Positions 4,670-41,481 of a stretch of 64,000 nt of DNA are shown one piece after another. The stretch covers positions 31,668-95,667 of the forward strand of contig CAAGJQ010000089.1 of NCBI GenBank assembly GCA_900770295.1. The letters run 5' to 3'. Position numbers and translations under genes: made by a program. The notes beneath the pieces were generated by a model. That model was not told where the DNA came from. It worked only from the letters and a program-made list of their open reading frames with translations, and did not search any database. Positions within the stretch are counted from its first letter, which is position 1; each line of letters starts with the position of its first letter. The stretch comes from an uncultured Oscillibacter sp. (lineage in GTDB: Bacteria; Bacillota; Clostridia; Oscillospirales; Oscillospiraceae).

Positions 4670-4769
4670 AGTGCTTCCTTCTTTTTGACGCAGATATGCA
4701 AAGCGGGGCACCTCTTACCGAAAGGCGCATCGGGTTCCCCGTTTTTTACAGAGGCCTCTTCTTACCGGG

Positions 4770-4846
4770 TTCACCAGCTGGATGCGCTTGTCCTTCGGCT
4801 TGCTGTGGCTCTCCCGGTACAGCACAAACTTGGTGCCGATGACCTG
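4770..4846 (-). repeat. downstream identical copy of the yhbY 3' region (77 bp direct repeat of 4989-5065)
   Basis: Exact 77-bp match, offset 219 bp (in frame). Confidence 0.97.
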
Positions 4847-4980
4847 CGCACCCCACGGGGCCAGCCCCGTGGGGACCCCGCATTGGACTCAAATGGTCAG
4901 GCAAAGCCCGCCCATTTCAAGATTTTGCGATTCGCAAAATGCTTGGACGCCGGATTTCCGGCGGTGTGGTCCAGGTCATC
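4847..4980. repeat. hairpin-rich spacer plus a 15-bp inverted repeat of the yhbY duplication junction
   Basis: Hairpins CCCCACGGGGC/GCCCCGTGGGG, ATTTTGCG/CGCAAAAT and CGCCGGA/TCCGGCG; 4966-4980 is the exact reverse complement of 5057-5071. Confidence 0.9.
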
Positions 4981-5293
4981 TCTTGCTTTTCACCAGCTGG
5001 ATGCGCTTGTCCTTCGGCTTGCTGTGGCTCTCCCGGTACAGCACAAACTTGGTGCCGATGACCTGGACCACTTCGGCGCGGGTGGCCTTTGCCAGCTCCT
5101 CCGCCGCGATGCGGGCGTCGTAGTCGATGCTGTTGTCCAGGACCCGGCCCTTGATGAGCTCCCGGGCCTCCAGGGCGTCATCGGCCTGCTTGACCAGATT
5201 CTCGCCGATGCCGTCCTTGCCGATCTGGAGGATGGTGTCGATGCTGTTGGCCAGACCCCGCAGCTGGGCCCGCTGTTTGCTTGTCAGTTCCAT
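4976..5293 (-). CDS. yhbY: ribosome assembly RNA-binding protein (CRM domain)
   Basis: LTSKQRAQLR..LQIGKDG..ELIK..VQVIG..VLYR motifs. Confidence 0.95.
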   Translation of the reverse strand: MELTSKQRAQLRGLANSIDTILQIGKDGIGENLVKQADDALEARELIKGRVLDNSIDYDARIAAEELAKATRAEVVQVIGTKFVLYRESHSKPKDKRIQLVKSKR

Positions 5294-5322
5294 GTGATTC
5301 TCCTAAATATTTTATTAGACGT

Positions 5323-5919
5323 TTATTTTCCCAAATAAGTTTCAAGTTTTGCGGAAAATTTCTTCAATGCCTGGCCCCGGTGGGAGATAGTGCTCTTCTC
5401 CTCCGCCGTCAGCTGGCCGAAGGTCTTGGCCAGGGGCGGGTAGAAAAAGACGGGGTCATAGCCGAAGCCGCCCTCCCCCATGGGGGCGAAGGCGATGGTG
5501 CCCTGGACCTGCCCCTCGGCGGTCAGGGTGTCGCCGTTGGGGAAGGCGCAGGCGATGGAGCAGGTGAAATGGGCCGCCCGGGTGGTCTGGCCCCGCATGC
5601 TGTTCAGCAGCAGGGTATACCGCCCCTTGTCGTCCAGACCCTCGCCGCCGTAGCGGGCGGAGTACACACCGGGGCCGCCGTTCAGGGCGTCCACGCAGAG
5701 GCCGGAGTCATCGGCAATGGCGGGCAAATTCGCCGCAGCGCAGATGGCTTTTGCTTTCAGCATGGCGTTCTCGGCAAAGGTGGCGCCGGTCTCCTCCACG
5801 TCCACGGTGATCCCCAGCTCCTTCGGGCTGACCACCTCCACGCCGAACCGGCTCAAAATAGAGGACATCTCCTTCAGCTTTCCCGGATTGTGGGTGGCAA
5901 GTACAAATTTCTGGCTCAT
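5323..5919 (-). CDS. rdgB: non-canonical purine NTP pyrophosphatase (Ham1 family)
   Basis: LATHNPGK, ADDSGL..PGVYSARY, GFGYDPVF, SHRGQA. Confidence 0.95.
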   Translation of the reverse strand: MSQKFVLATHNPGKLKEMSSILSRFGVEVVSPKELGITVDVEETGATFAENAMLKAKAICAAANLPAIADDSGLCVDALNGGPGVYSARYGGEGLDDKGRYTLLLNSMRGQTTRAAHFTCSIACAFPNGDTLTAEGQVQGTIAFAPMGEGGFGYDPVFFYPPLAKTFGQLTAEEKSTISHRGQALKKFSAKLETYLGK

Positions 5920-6641
5920 CAGAATGTTCCTCCCAGAACTTCTTTTTGGATGGCGCGCAGCTCCCGGTTGCCCTTGGCGCACAGGCGCACCAGCTCCTGC
6001 TGCTCGTCCAGGGTGAAGGCCCGGCCCTCGCCGGTGCCCTGGAGTTCGATGATCTCCCCCCGCTCGTTCATGATGCAGTTCAGGTCCACCTGGGCACGGC
6101 TGTCCTCGCTGTACTGCAGGTCCAGCAGGGCGGTGTCCTCCACGATACCGGCGGAGACGCCGGTGACATAGTGGCGGATGGGGCTGGAGACCAGAACGCC
6201 GTCGTCCACCAGCTTCCGGCAGGCCAGCGCCAGCGCGATGAAGCCGCCGGTGACGGAGGCCGTCCGGGTGCCGCCGTCGCCCTGGAGCACGTCGCAGTCG
6301 ATGGTGATGGTGTGCTCTCCCAGCTTCGTCATGTCCACAGCGGCCCGCAGGGAGCGGCCCACCAGTCTCTGGATCTCCGCGCTGCGGGGAGACAGCTTCA
6401 GCTTGGCCACGTCCCGCTTGCTCCGCTCCCGGTTGGCCCGGGGCAGCATGGAGTACTCGGCTGTGACCCAGCCCTCGCCCTCGGGGACGTGAGGCGGCGT
6501 GCGGTCCTCCACGCTGGCACAGCAGAGGACCTTGGTGTCGCCGCACTCAATGAGGCAGCTGCCCTCCGCGAATTTCACGAAATCGGTGGTGATTTTAATG
6601 GGGCGCAGTTCGTCATACGCCCGTCCGTCTTGTCTGGTCAT
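5919..6641 (-). CDS. rph: ribonuclease PH
   Basis: GWVTAEYSMLP, EIQRLVGRSLR, DGGTRTAS, DLQYSEDS. Confidence 0.95.
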   Translation of the reverse strand: MTRQDGRAYDELRPIKITTDFVKFAEGSCLIECGDTKVLCCASVEDRTPPHVPEGEGWVTAEYSMLPRANRERSKRDVAKLKLSPRSAEIQRLVGRSLRAAVDMTKLGEHTITIDCDVLQGDGGTRTASVTGGFIALALACRKLVDDGVLVSSPIRHYVTGVSAGIVEDTALLDLQYSEDSRAQVDLNCIMNERGEIIELQGTGEGRAFTLDEQQELVRLCAKGNRELRAIQKEVLGGTF

Positions 6642-6672
6642 AGATCGTTCTCCTCTTTCTGGGGCAGTAAAA

Positions 6673-6933
6673 TCAGTATCCCCGCAATGCGGGCTGGATG
6701 GCCGCAACGGCGCGGTCATAGTCATCCTTGTGGACGTAGATCGTATAGGTCAGGGCATAGTCCTGCATAGCGGGCGGCACTACGCCCCGTGCACGGCGGT
6801 CCGCCGCGGCGCCCAGGCCGCGGGTCCTGGTATTGCTGGGAATCCCCGCGGCGGAGAGGGCTTCCCGAATCCTGAAAAGTTTCTGCTGGGAGGGAATGGT
6901 GATGAGTTCTCTCCGATTGAAAACCGTAATCAT
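6673..6933 (-). CDS. small hypothetical protein
   Basis: MITVFNRRELI...YTIYVHKDDY; fills the gap between ftsY and rph; RBS AAGGGGG. Confidence 0.7.
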   Translation of the reverse strand: MITVFNRRELITIPSQQKLFRIREALSAAGIPSNTRTRGLGAAADRRARGVVPPAMQDYALTYTIYVHKDDYDRAVAAIQPALRGY

Positions 6934-6961
6934 GGGAAAGCCCCCTTTCCGTGCATTACAA

Positions 6962-7834
6962 TTAAATGATAGCCTCCACGTAGCTTCTGGCGTCAAAGGG
7001 GCGCAGGTCGTCGATGCCCTCGCCCACGCCGGCGAACTTCACGGGCACGCCCAGTTCCTTGGCGATGGCAATGACGATGCCGCCCTTGGCGGTGCCGTCC
7101 AGCTTGGTGAGGACAATGCCGGTGAGGCCGGCGGTCTCCTTGAACTGCCGGGCCTGGATCAGGCCGTTCTGGCCGGTGGTGGCGTCCAGCACCAGCAGCG
7201 TCTCCCGGGCGGCGCCGGGGCACTCCCGGTCGATGATCTTGGAGAGCTTTGCCAGTTCCGCCATCAGGTTGGCCTTGTTGTGGAGGCGGCCGGCGGTATC
7301 GCACAGCACCACGTCCACGCCCCGGGCCTTGGCGGCCTGGAGGGCGTCGAACAGCACGGCGCCGGGGTCCGCGCCCTCATGCTGGCGGACCAGCTCGCAG
7401 CCCGCCCGCTCCGACCAGATCTGGAGTTGGTCGGCGGCGGCGGCCCGGAAGGTGTCCGCCGCGCAGAACAGCACCCGCTTGCCCTCGCTTTTCAGCTGAT
7501 TGCCCAGCTTGCCGATGGACGTGGTCTTGCCCACGCCGTTGACGCCGATGAACAGCACCACGCTGGGCTGGGTGGAGATGTCCAGGGCGGTGTCGCCCAC
7601 GTCCATCATCTCCACCAGAACGTCCCGGAGGGCGGCCTTGACCTCCTCCTGGTCGCGGAGCTTCTCCTTGCGGACACGGGTCCGCAGCTGTTCCACCGCC
7701 TCCAGAGCGGTGTCCATGCCCAGGTCCGCCAGGATCAGAGTCTCCTCCAGCTCCTCGAAGAACGCCTCGTCGGCCTCGGAAAAGCCGGAGAACAGGTTGG
7801 TGGTGATTTTTTTCAGTTTGTCAAAAAAGCCCAT
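6962..7834 (-). CDS. ftsY: SRP receptor GTPase
   Basis: GVNGVGKTT, DTFRAAA, DTAGR, TKLDGTAKGG. Confidence 0.97.
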   Translation of the reverse strand: MGFFDKLKKITTNLFSGFSEADEAFFEELEETLILADLGMDTALEAVEQLRTRVRKEKLRDQEEVKAALRDVLVEMMDVGDTALDISTQPSVVLFIGVNGVGKTTSIGKLGNQLKSEGKRVLFCAADTFRAAAADQLQIWSERAGCELVRQHEGADPGAVLFDALQAAKARGVDVVLCDTAGRLHNKANLMAELAKLSKIIDRECPGAARETLLVLDATTGQNGLIQARQFKETAGLTGIVLTKLDGTAKGGIVIAIAKELGVPVKFAGVGEGIDDLRPFDARSYVEAII

Positions 7835-7843
7835 AGTCTCCTC

Positions 7844-8104
7844 CTAAAATAAGGAATTTGAACGGGGAGTCTTGTTCCAGTCATATGCTCTGCCGCAGTG
7901 CTTGCAGTGACTTCCGGGGGAACGCCCCAGCGGGGCGCCGCACTCCGGGCAGCGGCACATACCATAATAAACCAGCAGTCCCACAACCAGCGGCACAAGG
8001 CCGATGGCCATCAGCACTCCTATGCCAAAGTAGCCGATAACCGCCAGCAAAGCCCCCAGCACCATCAACACGATACTGAGGGTCAGCCATTTTTTCAGGC
8101 TCAC
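7844..8104 (-). CDS. small membrane protein with a C-terminal zinc ribbon
   Basis: Two TM segments, then CPECG...CKHCG; GGGGGA RBS before GTG. Confidence 0.75.
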   Translation of the reverse strand: MSLKKWLTLSIVLMVLGALLAVIGYFGIGVLMAIGLVPLVVGLLVYYGMCRCPECGAPLGRSPGSHCKHCGRAYDWNKTPRSNSLF

Positions 8105-8116
8105 GAGCAGTCCCCC

Positions 8117-8191
8117 TTACTTGATCTTCAGTTCCTTGGCCATGTCGTTCAGATTAATGGTCAGTATCTTGCTGACGCCCTGCTCCTGCAT
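8117..8191 (-). repeat. downstream copy of the last 25 codons of smc (direct repeat of 8327-8401)
   Basis: 70/75 identical, offset 210 bp (in frame); all five differences synonymous. Confidence 0.97.
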
Positions 8192-8326
8192 ATCGTCGTC
8201 GCAAAGTCCGCTAAGCTCCGTTTCCGCCTTGCGGTGAAAACTGCGCCCGCTCCCTTGCTCCTCCTCTTCCCACCGTGACCGCTTCGCCGGGTCACGGCGG
8301 GAGCCCTGTTGGGGCGTCACCATGCC
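8192..8326 (-). repeat. structured 114-nt module plus a 13-bp inverted repeat of the smc duplication junction
   Basis: 8313-8325 is the reverse complement of 8398-8410; module 8193-8306 is colinear with 41333-41446. Confidence 0.9.
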
Positions 8327-11300
8327 CTATTTGATCTTCAATTCCTTGGCCATGTCGTTCAGATTGATGGTCAGTATCTTACTGACGCCCTGCTCCTGCA
8401 TGGTGACGCCGTACAGCACGTCGGCCTCCTCCATGGTGCCCCGGCGGTGGGTGATGACGATGAACTGCGTCCGGCCCGCCAGGGTCCGCATGTAGCGGGC
8501 CACCCGGATGACGTTGGGCTCGTCCAGGGCGGCCTCGATCTCATCCATGACGCAGAAGGGCGTGGGGTGGACCTTCAAAATGGCGAAGTACAGAGCGATG
8601 GCCACGAAGGCCTTCTCGCCGCCGGAGAGGAGGGAGATGGTCTTTAAGGTCTTTCCGGGCGGCTGGGCCTTGATCTCGATGCCGCAGCCCAGAATGTCGC
8701 TCTCGTCCTCCAGCTCCAGCTTGGCCTGGCCCCCGCCGAAGAGGTCCGTGAAGGTGGTCTGGAAGCTCTCGTTGATGAGCTTGAACTGCTCCGCGAAGAT
8801 GGCGGTCATCTGGTTGGTGATCTCCTCGATGATGCCGCTGAGCTCCTCCTTGGCCTTTTCCACGTCGTCGCGCTGGTCCGTCAGATAGGTGTAGCGGCCG
8901 TTGACCCGGTCGAACTCCTCGATAGCGCCGATGTTGATGGCTCCAAGGGCGGAGATGTCCCGTTTCAGCTCTCCGATGCGGCGGGTGGCCTTGGGGATGC
9001 TCTCCAGCTCGATGCGCTGGGCCTGAGCATCCGTGTGGCTGAGCTCGTAGGTCTCCCACAGCCGGTCCAGGATCTGCTTTTCCTCCATGGCGGAGGTGGA
9101 GATCTTGTTCTCCAGCTTTGCCGCCGCCATCTGCAGATTCTGGAAGTTCTCGTTCAGTTCCTTGCTGGCGCGGTTTTTGGCAGTGCGCTCCGCCTCCAGG
9201 GCGATCTTCTCCTCGTTCAGCGCCGTCAGCCGGTCCCGGAAGGTCTGGCCCTGGGCAGAGAGGGTTTCCAGCTCCGTTTTCCGCCGGGCGATCTCTCCGC
9301 TGGCCTCGTCGATGTTCCGCTGATAGGTCCGGACCGTCTCCTCCTTCTGGTCCCGGTCCCCGGCCAAACTCTCCGCCAGCTGCCGCAGGTCGGCGGCACG
9401 GCGGACGGTGGACTCCCGCTCGGCGGTCAGAGCCGCCAGATCGGACTTCTTTCCGCTGATCTCTTCCGTCAGAGCCCCGGACTGGGCCAGCAGCTCTGAC
9501 TGGCCGGAGAGGGCCTCTTCGGCCTTCGCCCGCAGGCTCTCCGCCAGACGCTCCTGCCCGGCGATCTGTTTTTCCGCCTCCGCGGCCCGCTGCCCGTTGT
9601 CCTTCAGGCGGCCGGTCAGGCTCTCCCACTCGCCCTCCAGATTTTCCAGATTCTCCCGCAGGGAGCGCAGCAAAATGTCAAAGTGGTTCTTCGTACCCTC
9701 CAGCCGCAAAACCTCGTCCTCGGCCTGGCGGCGCTGGCTCTCCGCCGTCTCCAGCTCGTACTGGGCGGCGGCCAGTTCCCGGTTCGCCGCCTCCTCCGCA
9801 GCCTGGGCGGCGGACAGCTTTTCATGCATGGCGCTGGCCCGGCCGTTCAGCTTTTCCAGCTCGGCGGCGCGGCTCAGCACACCGGCGGACCGGCTGGTGG
9901 AGCCGCCGGTCATGGAGCCGCCCCGGTTGATGACCTGCCCGTCCAGCGTCACGATGCGGAAGGCGTTGCGGTACTTCCGGGCCATGGCGATGCCGCAGTC
10001 CATGTCCTCCACGATGACCGTCCGGCCCAGGAGGTTCTGGAAGATATTCGTATAGCGGGCATCAAACTTCACCAGGCGGGAGGCGATGCCCACGAAACCG
10101 AATTCATTTTCCACGCCGGGCTGGCGCAGCTCGTCGCCCCGGATGGCGGTCAGCGGCAGGAAGGTGGCGCGGCCGCCGTCCCGCTGTTTCAGGAAGTTGA
10201 TGGCCGCCTTGGCGTCCTCCTCCCGGTCCACCACGATGTTCTGCAATCCCGCGCCCAGGGCGATCTCAATGGCCAGAGACACCTGCTGGTCGGTCTTCAT
10301 CAGATTCGCCACCGGGCCGTGGATGCCCCGGAGACTATTCTTTGCCTGCATGACCGTCTTGACGGCCTTGGAGAAGCCCTCGTACTCCTTCTCCATCTCC
10401 GTCAGAAGGCGGATGCGGTTGTCCAGCGCGCCCACGTCCATGGTCAGCTGGACCCGGTGTTCCGACGCGGCGGCGGCTTTCTTCTTCCGCTCCTCCATCC
10501 GCAGGCTGTGGCCCGCGATGATGTTGGACACCGCCTCCGCCTCGTCCCGGGCATCCTCCAGAGCGCGGCGGTTGGCCCTGGCCTCCTTCTCGGATTCCGC
10601 CAGTTGGGCCTCGGCGGCGGCTTTTTCCTGTTCAACGGCGGCTTTCCGCTCCTCGATCTGTCCGTTTTCAGCGGCGATGGCAGCGACTTCCGCCCGCGCG
10701 TCCGCCGCAGCGGCCACGGCCATGGCCTCCTGGCCCCGCAGGGCCTCCGCCTGGGACTGGGCGCCGCCGGCCTGGGCCGCGGCCTCCCGTGCCTGCTCCA
10801 GCAGTCCATCCAGCGCGTGATTCAGCGTCTCGATCTCTCCGTCGATCTCCGCGATGCGGCGCTCCAGTTCCTCCGCCTGCTTCTCCAGGCCTCCGGCGCG
10901 GCTGTCCGTCTCCTCCAGCTCCGTCCGGGCCCGGTCGATGTTCTCCTGATTGTGGGTGATCGTACTCTCCAGCACGGCGATGGCGGACTCCTGCTCCTTC
11001 ACCCGGCCGTCCAGCTCGGCGGCCTCGGCGCGGATGCGCTCCGCCTCCATGTCCTTCTCCTGCATCCGAAGACCGTACTGCTCATCCTCGGCGTACAGGG
11101 CGTCAATTTGGGCCTTGGCCTCGTCCCGGGCGGCCTCGGCGGCGGCGCAGTCCGCCTTCAGCTTCTGGACGCTGGCTTTCAGGGCATCCAGATTCTCCAG
11201 CCACACGGAGATCTCCAACAGGCGCAGCTCGTCCCGCAGGACCAGGAACTTTTTGGCCTTCTCCGCCTGGTCCCGCAGGGGTTCCACCTGCAATTCCAGT

Positions 11301-11893
11301 TCGGATATCTTGTCGTTGATGCGGACCAGGTTCTCCTCCGTCCGCTCCAGCTTCCGCTCCGACTCCTCTTTCCGGTGGCGGAACTTGGAGATGCCGGCGG
11401 CCTCCTCGAAAATCTCCCGGCGCTCGCCGCTCTTGGCGGACAAAATCTCGTCGATCTTGCCCTGGCCGATGATGGAGTAGCCCTCCCGGCCCATGCCGGT
11501 GTCCATGAACAGCTCCGTCACGTCCTTCAATCGGACGGACTGCCGGTTGATGTAGTATTCGCTCTCGCCGCTGCGGTAATAGCGGCGGGTGACGGAGACC
11601 TCCGCCTCCTCCATGGTGGGGAAGATGTGCTCCGTGTTGTCGATTACCAGCGTCACCTGGGCAAAGCCCACCTGGGCCCGCTTCGCCGTGCCGCCGAAGA
11701 TGACGTCCTCCATCTTCGCGCCTCGGAGGCTCTTACTGCTCTGCTCACCCATGACCCAGCGGATGGCGTCGGAAATATTGGACTTGCCGGAGCCGTTGGG
11801 GCCCACGATGGCGGTGATATCCTCGCCGAAGTTCAGGACCGTCTTATCGGGGAAGGACTTGAATCCCTGGATCTCCAATGCTTTTAAGTACAC
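8327..11893 (-). CDS. smc: chromosome segregation protein SMC
   Basis: GFKSF, GPNGSGKSN, coiled coils, hinge GRATFLP..GSMTGG, LSGGEK, DEIEAALD. Confidence 0.98.
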   Translation of the reverse strand: MYLKALEIQGFKSFPDKTVLNFGEDITAIVGPNGSGKSNISDAIRWVMGEQSSKSLRGAKMEDVIFGGTAKRAQVGFAQVTLVIDNTEHIFPTMEEAEVSVTRRYYRSGESEYYINRQSVRLKDVTELFMDTGMGREGYSIIGQGKIDEILSAKSGERREIFEEAAGISKFRHRKEESERKLERTEENLVRINDKISELELQVEPLRDQAEKAKKFLVLRDELRLLEISVWLENLDALKASVQKLKADCAAAEAARDEAKAQIDALYAEDEQYGLRMQEKDMEAERIRAEAAELDGRVKEQESAIAVLESTITHNQENIDRARTELEETDSRAGGLEKQAEELERRIAEIDGEIETLNHALDGLLEQAREAAAQAGGAQSQAEALRGQEAMAVAAAADARAEVAAIAAENGQIEERKAAVEQEKAAAEAQLAESEKEARANRRALEDARDEAEAVSNIIAGHSLRMEERKKKAAAASEHRVQLTMDVGALDNRIRLLTEMEKEYEGFSKAVKTVMQAKNSLRGIHGPVANLMKTDQQVSLAIEIALGAGLQNIVVDREEDAKAAINFLKQRDGGRATFLPLTAIRGDELRQPGVENEFGFVGIASRLVKFDARYTNIFQNLLGRTVIVEDMDCGIAMARKYRNAFRIVTLDGQVINRGGSMTGGSTSRSAGVLSRAAELEKLNGRASAMHEKLSAAQAAEEAANRELAAAQYELETAESQRRQAEDEVLRLEGTKNHFDILLRSLRENLENLEGEWESLTGRLKDNGQRAAEAEKQIAGQERLAESLRAKAEEALSGQSELLAQSGALTEEISGKKSDLAALTAERESTVRRAADLRQLAESLAGDRDQKEETVRTYQRNIDEASGEIARRKTELETLSAQGQTFRDRLTALNEEKIALEAERTAKNRASKELNENFQNLQMAAAKLENKISTSAMEEKQILDRLWETYELSHTDAQAQRIELESIPKATRRIGELKRDISALGAINIGAIEEFDRVNGRYTYLTDQRDDVEKAKEELSGIIEEITNQMTAIFAEQFKLINESFQTTFTDLFGGGQAKLELEDESDILGCGIEIKAQPPGKTLKTISLLSGGEKAFVAIALYFAILKVHPTPFCVMDEIEAALDEPNVIRVARYMRTLAGRTQFIVITHRRGTMEEADVLYGVTMQEQGVSKILTINLNDMAKELKIK

Positions 11894-41280: not shown

Positions 41281-41481
41281 AAGTTTCGCCCGCCTCTCAT
41301 GCCCCGAAGGGGTATTTCAAAGGCGGCATCCCGGGGCCCCGCCGGAACTCAGCAAAGCGGTTCCGGTGGGGTGAGGAAGAACACACGGAGCGATGCGGGG
41401 AATGGCCGACAGGCCGTTCCGAGCACAGCGGAGTCTGTTCTGACGAGGGGCAGAGCCCCTGCCGGGTCCGGGCGGAGCCCG
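41281..41481 (+). repeat. nested palindromic repeat cluster containing a 114-nt structured module (41333-41446)
   Basis: Hairpins CCGCCT/AGGCGG, ATGCCCC-GAA-GGGGTAT, GGGGC-AGA-GCCCC and CGGGC-GGA-GCCCG; inner module is homologous to 8193-8306. Confidence 0.8.

Follow-up and report, generated by a model that had tools for sequence, protein, structure and literature searches.

Gene-end repeat elements with target-matched inverted repeats in Oscillospiraceae as candidate DNA-guided homing mini-elements

Introduction

In the insertion sequence IS608, DNA guides set the choice of target and can be reset and extended (PMC5934647, in the part cited here). Here we describe a family of small repeat elements, found at the 3' ends of yhbY and smc in a 64,000-nt stretch of DNA (the window, at its full length) from an uncultured Oscillibacter sp. 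(GenBank assembly GCA_900770295.1, contig CAAGJQ010000089.1, positions 31,668 to 95,667), in which a copy of the gene end is accompanied by a short inverted repeat that matches the site occupied. By analogy, these elements appear functionally most like IS608, with the addition of an attP like that by which integrative elements and phages restore a tRNA or the 3' end of a gene. Their layout is apparently undescribed: literature searches, with subscription papers and bioRxiv supplements outside their scope, returned no description of it, in line with the initial annotation of this DNA, made from the sequence alone, which likewise knew of no named element built in this way.

The likeness to the IS200/IS605 family (IS608 among them) and its derivatives, as far as the cited part of that literature describes them, lies in a single structured strand, a sub-terminal hairpin at the crossover, guide pairing between DNA and DNA, and a precise empty site; the circular intermediate of IS608 also parallels the circle proposed below (PMC5934647, same part). 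Whereas IS608 has a fixed 4-nt guide, the guide here is 10-15 nt long, locus-specific and spans both sides of the crossover; unlike IS200/IS605, these elements bring along a copy of the end of their target, the duplications measuring about 20-110 nt, have no conserved tetra- or pentanucleotide and show no link to TnpA, and our small counts gave no clear replication-strand bias. Islands at gene ends share with them a conserved gene end repaired by the element's copy, a displaced end that decays, tandem arrays and a precise empty site; unlike such islands, the present elements measure 150-270 nt, lack an integrase (nor was a long, integrase-coding relative with the same ends found), address about 40 different targets, carry a guide, and also occupy 5' and mid-gene sites.

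Repetitive extragenic palindromic (REP) sequences and their clusters (REPINs) are likewise modular, GC-rich, hairpin-forming, numerous and lineage-specific, and in the cited part of PMC8266576 their REP-associated tyrosine transposases (RAYTs) show a guide-like choice of cleavage site; the guide-less S-type copies described below are the most REP-like. The present elements differ in having no GTAG/GATG foot or CT site, the RAYT-like genes seen here go with other repeats, and REPs are not known to duplicate gene ends. Miniature inverted-repeat transposable elements and other small bacterial repeats are similarly short, non-coding, structured and sometimes translated in frame (PMC3184786, in part); unlike them, our elements have neither fixed terminal inverted repeats, the inverted repeat being locus-specific and target-derived, nor a short target duplication. 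The same part of that study describes housekeeping genes of Pseudomonas fluorescens as repeat-poor, whereas these elements sit in just such genes. Strand-biased circularizing elements, in the cited part of PMC10214605, resemble them in one-strand recombination, circles and a few unmatched bases at one joint, and differ in being kilobases long, encoding tyrosine recombinases and leaving no empty site. Integron attC and CTX-phi attP likewise recombine as one strand, and neither they nor the strand-biased circularizing elements are known to combine a target-matched guide with a gene-end copy. IS110 elements, with a DEDD recombinase and split left and right guides in an RNA loop, programme the target through the base pairing of a bridge RNA; in our elements the guide is a single unbroken stretch facing one strand, the folding is of DNA type, there is no recombinase and the gene-end copy is long.

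Results

Both genes are read on the minus strand and were identified by profile search (yhbY, PF01985 and TIGR00253; smc, PF02463 and TIGR02168). In the direction of transcription they share one order: gene body (X), proximal end copy (Y1) with the stop codon, an inverted copy of the X|Y junction (hereafter the guide), a hairpin core, and the distal end copy (Y2). At yhbY the direct repeat is 77 nt long and 100% identical (4770-4846 and 4989-5065, period 219), and the inverted repeat is an exact 15 nt (4966-4980 against the junction at 5057-5071); at smc the direct repeat is about 75 nt (77 nt at 93.5% identity in one alignment) with period 210, and the inverted repeat an exact 13 nt (8313-8325 and 8398-8410). 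The repeats, periods and inverted-repeat lengths given for this cassette in the initial annotation were thus all reproduced on recomputation. The features are as follows.

4976-5293, minus strand: yhbY gene (X plus Y1, ending VKSKR-stop), from its open reading frame and Pfam/NCBIfam matches
4989-5065, minus: yhbY Y1, 77 nt, the probably element-borne working gene end, from the repeat, with its origin judged from empty alleles
5057-5071, minus: yhbY X/Y junction, the target site, complementary to the guide by sequence comparison
4966-4980, minus: yhbY guide of 15 nt, the junction's exact reverse complement; overlaps the stop codon, and in relative G166 is changed to the host variant
4880-4965, minus: yhbY core of Y type with three hairpins, the second of which (4918-4945) has a bulged C
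4851-4879, minus: yhbY H hairpin (GGG-N-Y-CCC...GGG); the second copy starts about 3 nt later in general, 4 nt at yhbY
4770-4846, minus: yhbY Y2, the displaced original gene end, from the repeat and empty relatives
4746-4769, minus: original yhbY tail (PGKKRPL-stop), out of frame through one lost base, from relatives' alleles
8327-11893, minus: smc gene (X plus Y1), from its open reading frame and Pfam/NCBIfam matches
8327-8401, minus: smc Y1, the working gene end brought by the element, with a stop codon (TAG) of its own, from the repeat and relatives
8398-8410, minus: smc X/Y junction, the target site, by sequence comparison
8313-8325, minus: smc guide of 13 nt, the junction's exact reverse complement; tracks a host GTC-to-ATC change in loci L355 and L043
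8192-8307, minus: smc core of S type, first the H hairpin, whose loop is GC-GAA-GC, and after it a rod hairpin that ends in GACGACG
8117-8191, minus: smc Y2, the gene's original end (TAA), now displaced; it runs on into downstream DNA as in the empty relatives G075 and G155

Both spacers fold as DNA far more stably than their shuffles (z -6.2 for yhbY, -4.1 for smc), and an Rfam search of the two returned nothing reaching or nearing a gathering score. They do differ from each other, as the initial annotation had it; neither is unique, each belonging to a dispersed family, and they have one hairpin in common. The two families are called here Y type (yhbY spacer) and S type (smc spacer); the shared H hairpin closes the Y core (3' end) and opens the S core (5' end), and the modules combine.

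The layout is real and general. Among full-length Y cores with enough flank (n = 99), 89 have a direct copy upstream, 10 have none and 0 an inverted one. Of the non-tandem Y elements, 61 of 81 have an inverted repeat that straddles the junction and is exact over 8 nt or more, as against 1.8% when junctions of other elements are substituted, and control offsets of -40, -25 and +14 within each element's own sequence gave 0/80, 0/80 and 3/81; other loci therefore carry the junction-matched repeat above chance, as the initial annotation had asked of its proposal. That both periods in the window are multiples of three is correct and a coincidence, periods being spread evenly over the three residues (30/26/25).

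Geometry was derived from 65 elements chosen because their guide reaches 8 nt or more. Their guide footprint is symmetric, from about -2 to +8 with the crossover at +3, that is some 5-6 bases per side; the guide pairs with the target across the crossover, and with the element's own right joint on the Y side only. Copy identity begins about 3 nt past the H hairpin in Y-type elements, and the S-type crossover falls directly after GACGACG. No target consensus beyond purine richness emerged from the same 65 elements, and therefore specificity is not set by a fixed protein site; with an inverted repeat that differs at every locus, this upholds the earlier view of it as a target-specific guide and not a fixed recombinase site. 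Duplications run from about 20 to 110 nt, and the longest period among 83 matches with an upstream copy is 366 nt. The moving unit of gene-end copy, guide and core, about 150-270 nt, is both the difference between filled and empty alleles and the repeat unit of tandem arrays.

Precise empty orthologous sites, another check proposed at the outset, were found for both genes. All 22 relatives' yhbY loci compared are empty, and the closest, G155, ends in VKPTKKRSL-stop, matching the distal tail in the window save for one base missing there; the insertion shortened the YhbY tail in the source genome. In G166 two tandem elements occupy the identical yhbY crossover. The smc gene was matched in 132 of 165 genus genomes, and among the best 30 loci 15 have the full layout, others being truncated, split or eroded; the empty alleles of G075 and G155 continue downstream as Y2 does. 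Since empty relatives continue like Y2, the insert consists of Y1, guide and core. An assembly artefact is unlikely, judging from the sequences compared, because the yhbY element recurs at the same site in G166, the smc element is in at least 15 other genus genomes (single-contig G101 included), and genomes assembled as one contig or nearly closed carry many copies. Arrays of two or three near-identical units with the odd copy last occur in the single-contig or near-closed genomes G180, G101 and G080.

The guide follows its host. At infB, lepA and smc, with loci kept at 9/12 or more central matches (22/25, 17/22 and 20/24) and four reverse-strand duplicate rows excluded, a hand count found minority alleles matched by the guide in 18/21 cases on the host side and 2/10 on the element side. 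The yhbY guide of G166 is altered along with the host variant, and the tuf guide agrees with the host in 3/3 GGT and 6/6 GGC cases. Cores are more similar in the same gene across genomes (0.74) than in different genes within one genome (0.67), and their similarity tracks that of the hosts (Mantel p 0.048 for infB, 0.010 for lepA).

Differences between Y1 and Y2 are mostly silent: 28 synonymous and 2 other at smc (13 loci, two more dropped for Ns or decay), 23 and 6 at infB (14 loci), and 28 and 18 in the cross-genome lepA set, the latter mostly from one N-containing locus and one decayed copy. Within one population, 14 of 30 metagenome contigs of a single lepA element, kept for flank length, gave 37 synonymous and 0 non-synonymous differences, with 6 of 9 variable sites polymorphic in both copies. 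A dead copy would gather mainly non-synonymous changes, and therefore Y2 is being replaced by working alleles, a refreshment that either excision and re-entry or ordinary recombination could bring about. Linkage correlations in lepA were 0.22 (p 0.14) for X with Y2, -0.09 for X with Y1 and -0.18 for Y2 with downstream DNA (Z), values that favour neither of these two routes.

Profile searches of the source genome gave 19 Y-type matches and, at a loose threshold, 13 S-type matches, most of the latter without a duplication. Y-type sites include lepA (both ends, in opposite orientation), fhs, glmS, uvrB, era, rsmH (tandem), prmC, infB, tuf, a mazF-like gene and the fabK 5' end, among others; apart from yhbY, smc and the U32-family gene discussed below, target names are what we take the genes to be from their translated ends. 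Scans of larger collections yielded at least 120 loci per core type, and the matches listed are nearly all from Oscillospiraceae and near relatives, in keeping with the placement of the source genome there; among them, a direct repeat lies nearby (tandem overlaps included) in 111/146 Y and 29/137 distinct S matches, and about 40 distinct genes are targeted by Y and S together. The Y motif is present in 60 of 113 genus genomes (completeness at least 85%), with 0 control matches. A family-wide infB search under overly strict criteria gave 2/151, and a pattern scan for yhbY lacked specificity. Single-contig or near-closed genomes hold many copies, and cultured Oscillospiraceae are among the carriers, by named records.

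The window holds a third core, of the guide-less kind.

41337-41444, plus strand: S-type core without duplication or guide, downstream of an ABC-transporter gene

Guide-less S insertion duplicates at most 3 nt, and such cores often lie just upstream of purine-rich ribosome-binding sites; hidden guides showed no excess above the null in 53 of these loci. Cores also occur on phage contigs and conjugative elements, including a guided copy at the end of a phage terminase-like gene (L089), and searches of viral contigs for empty sites found one set and otherwise nothing. The plasmid collection gave no real match to the cores, and in the phage collection two phage-labelled records proved to be conjugative-element fragments with guide-less S cores.

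Other observations concern the surroundings of the cores. Guide-less Y or S cores stand directly 5' of phage packaging and structural genes (L082, L084, L085, L212-L218, L237); S insertions lie in frame within conjugative-element genes (L210, L211); S cores lie nested, at varying positions, within larger palindromic repeats that form a family in these genomes (L063-L078); and guide-less S cores end exactly at what is, judging by its motif, presumably the 5' end of the transfer-messenger RNA (G000:C106:36100-36222, L228, L275), with three such cores in tandem at L228 and L235. Cassettes at tRNA 3' ends have the Y hairpin modules reversed and lack the H end (L098, L115, L152, L160, L167, L209). 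Whole genes (lepA, uvrB-like) are bracketed by outward-facing elements at G000:C123:23932-26180, L092, L120 and L594. Metagenome contigs L780, L765, L809, L817, L821 and L762 join one element's left half to the lepA right half (fhs/lepA or lepA 5'/lepA 3'), or else a 74%-identical lepA to another species' element and downstream DNA; either the cores served for rearrangement or gene transfer, or the contigs are mis-assembled. An AT-richer unannotated non-coding stretch without an Rfam match has a Y element with nested repeats at its end (G000:C133:18700-19300, L447). A third small repeat family, also without an Rfam match, duplicates 26-37-nt terminator-like hairpins (G000:C148:35438-35712 and C93:14490-14724), and two CRISPR-like arrays with 33-nt repeats lie at G000:C4:15310-16420 and C101:127-1300.

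Stem pairs covary in both cores (13/24 and 21/28). The top strand favours G-T over A-C pairs by 61:3 and 91:8, which fits RNA too. Among Y-type triloops 78/127 are c(GNA)g, against 3 of the reverse complement, and GNYA outnumbers GNRA by 8 to 0, the copies being related; in S type 68/76 loops are of the mini-hairpin type. Such loops are described as forming DNA mini-hairpins that withstand nucleases and single-strand-binding protein, have weaker counterparts in RNA and occur at single-strand origins (PMC13037366, in the part cited).

Discussion

We favour, with moderate confidence, the reading that these are non-autonomous DNA-guided homing mini-elements, moved as a circle of single-stranded DNA by a structure-specific enzyme. 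The initial annotation's small non-autonomous element with a target-specific guide gains support from the size of the family, the null test and the empty sites. On the proposed route, the unit of Y1, guide and core would leave as a single-stranded circle shielded by its mini-hairpins, within which only half of the guide could pair with the element's own gene-end copy and the other half stay free as a toehold. Where a target strand is exposed, the free half would then pair with its host side, branch migration would complete the pairing, and a putative trans-acting enzyme, HUH-like by analogy with IS608 and possibly supplied by phages or integrative elements, would swap the strands. The carried copy would keep the gene working and restore the target, permitting repeat insertion and arrays; loss and re-entry within a species would keep both copies drawn from working alleles; and new addresses would arise rarely, then persist as site-specific lineages. 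More tentatively, one such enzyme may deliver single-stranded mini-circles wherever a DNA guide of 10-15 nt directs them, with no fixed motif. Of the insertion of HUH or reverse-transcriptase type with long target duplication suggested initially, the single-stranded flavour stands; a fresh target duplication at each insertion is not supported as the whole story, in view of old site-specific lineages and a proximal copy with its own tail.

Several observations weigh against this reading. Mobility is evidenced by filled and empty alleles and arrays in assemblies, among which neither excised circles nor insertion events were seen. Minimum-free-energy folding of the circle did not yield the half-paired guide, and that state therefore belongs to the model only; RNA folding parameters, too, favour the top strand. 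The agreement in the guide-tracking test is inflated by the match filter and by kinship among loci, and its element-side positions sit at the guide's edge. The empty smc allele of G079 agrees with Y1 of G064, a filled locus, as far as the tail, which places a crossover at the far end of the repeat, and 108 of the 137 distinct S matches listed lack a duplication and show no excess of inverted repeats. No long or autonomous form appears among 83 matches with an upstream copy. On the replication strands, 10 loci against 7 (three genomes, counted by hand, origin assumed at dnaA) give no clear lagging-template bias, an insertion bias that IS200/IS605 elements show.

The search for an enzyme weighs in the same direction. 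The source genome has one Y1 transposase (a family name unrelated to the end copy), 20 tyrosine-recombinase matches, one reverse transcriptase and one IS110 fragment, none of which adjoins a core; no enzyme gene lies beside or between cores, and open reading frames between paired cores are housekeeping or phage genes only. The Y1 transposase family is found in 36/81 genomes, with a core within 1.5 kb of 2/29 loci, in neither case flanking the transposase gene; the family was not found in the element-rich genomes G022, G165 and G179, and the IS200 ends of the source genome are unrelated to the elements. The RAYT-like genes (NF047646 below cut-off) carry GTAG repeats of their own; at L394, L396, L398, L399 and L400 these repeats lie within the coding sequence, and the genes directly follow a gyrB/parE-like gene. 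A stand-alone retron-like reverse transcriptase (NF038233 below cut-off; G000:C52:4833-5759, L584) occurs in 19 of the 113 genus genomes, with close copies in 18, of which 15 contain Y motifs; it was not found in the element-rich G064, G071, G120, G165 and G179, and is not required. Of the co-occurrence suggested initially, neither HUH (Y1 or RAYT) nor reverse-transcriptase partners tracked the elements, the latter being enriched among carriers nonetheless. No core shares a contig with the IS110 fragment, which was looked up in the source genome only. Large serine recombinases near cores were considered and set aside, as they belong to unrelated integrative elements.

The best-surviving alternative, in our view unlikely, is passive upkeep: after rare past inserts, homologous recombination would refresh the copies, unequal crossing-over would generate arrays and template switching in the hairpin at the junction would keep the inverted repeat perfect, with no dedicated enzyme at work now. 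It accords with the free shuffling of Y1 and Y2 haplotypes, the far-end crossover in G079 against G064, the many eroded remnants, the mostly vertical descent and the negative enzyme search. It leaves unexplained how about 40 independent targets came by one geometry, why the cores are conserved and covarying, why guides track the host side better than the element side, and how 40-110-nt direct repeats persist around hairpins, where they should readily be deleted; nor is the linkage between adjacent segments seen that it calls for (X with Y1, Y2 with Z).

Rather less probable is a fold-back attP, in which a single-stranded circle would fold so that the inverted repeat and joint form a double-stranded site for a relaxed tyrosine or serine recombinase, as the folded sites of integron attC and CTX-phi do. 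The hairpins are indeed bulged and covarying, the 3-nt unmatched stretch at the crossover resembles an overlap, and several smc guides also pair across the core/Y2 crossover with 2-3 mispairs. On the X side, however, the guide of Y elements matches the target and not the joint (0.83-1.00 against 0.23-0.52 at positions -1 to +2), there is no conserved dinucleotide and no binding arms, and the recombinase genes near cores are incidental.

An RNA route seems more doubtful again: an intron-like or retro-element would use the inverted repeat as its internal guide in splicing, forward or reverse, and a reverse transcriptase would act in trans. Sense orientation at 3' gene ends in 61/81 elements, the ready folding of the top strand as RNA, and the retron-like gene with its enrichment among carriers all speak for it. 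Against these stand some 8 of the 81 that are antisense at 5' gene ends (10 flagged, yhbY being a miscall and one more doubtful), the tuf duplication, which contains the terminator, and a mid-gene Y element in a U32-family gene (G000:C90:14958-15227; L446, L450-L455), where a conserved cysteine motif is duplicated and the reading frame continues without a stop in 5/5 filled genomes, adding 58-74 residues after the duplicated motif, with an in-frame remnant in a sixth. The loops are of DNA type, Rfam gave no match, and the retron-like gene was not found in the five element-rich genomes named above. Splicing and inversion are both unlikely because of the DNA-type loops, the antisense 5' copies, the tuf terminator copy and the in-frame U32 copy, and the last three leave the RNA exon switch among the initial suggestions unsupported. 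A group I or II intron was rejected for want of a catalytic core and fixed splice-site bases and for not always lying in sense.

An intragenic inverton flipping the segment between the inverted arms, also suggested initially, is close to refuted: the inverted repeat is there, and contig L780 joins 5' and 3' lepA elements as a core-core inversion would, without the reciprocal joint, but none of the 99 cores has an inverted copy in assemblies, flipping would cut the ends of tuf, infB and smc, and the arms differ at every locus, hence offer no invertase site.

Because cultured Oscillospiraceae carry the elements, the DNA-guided homing reading is directly testable. If the guide does set the target, the elements would represent programmable, motif-free DNA insertion needing about 130 nt in cis, and the enzyme, if there is one as proposed, would form a new class beside IS608 guides and bridge RNAs. 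The elements also break and collapse short-read assemblies of these abundant gut bacteria. Even if guide programming fails, the family edits the ends of essential genes and shuffles their alleles.

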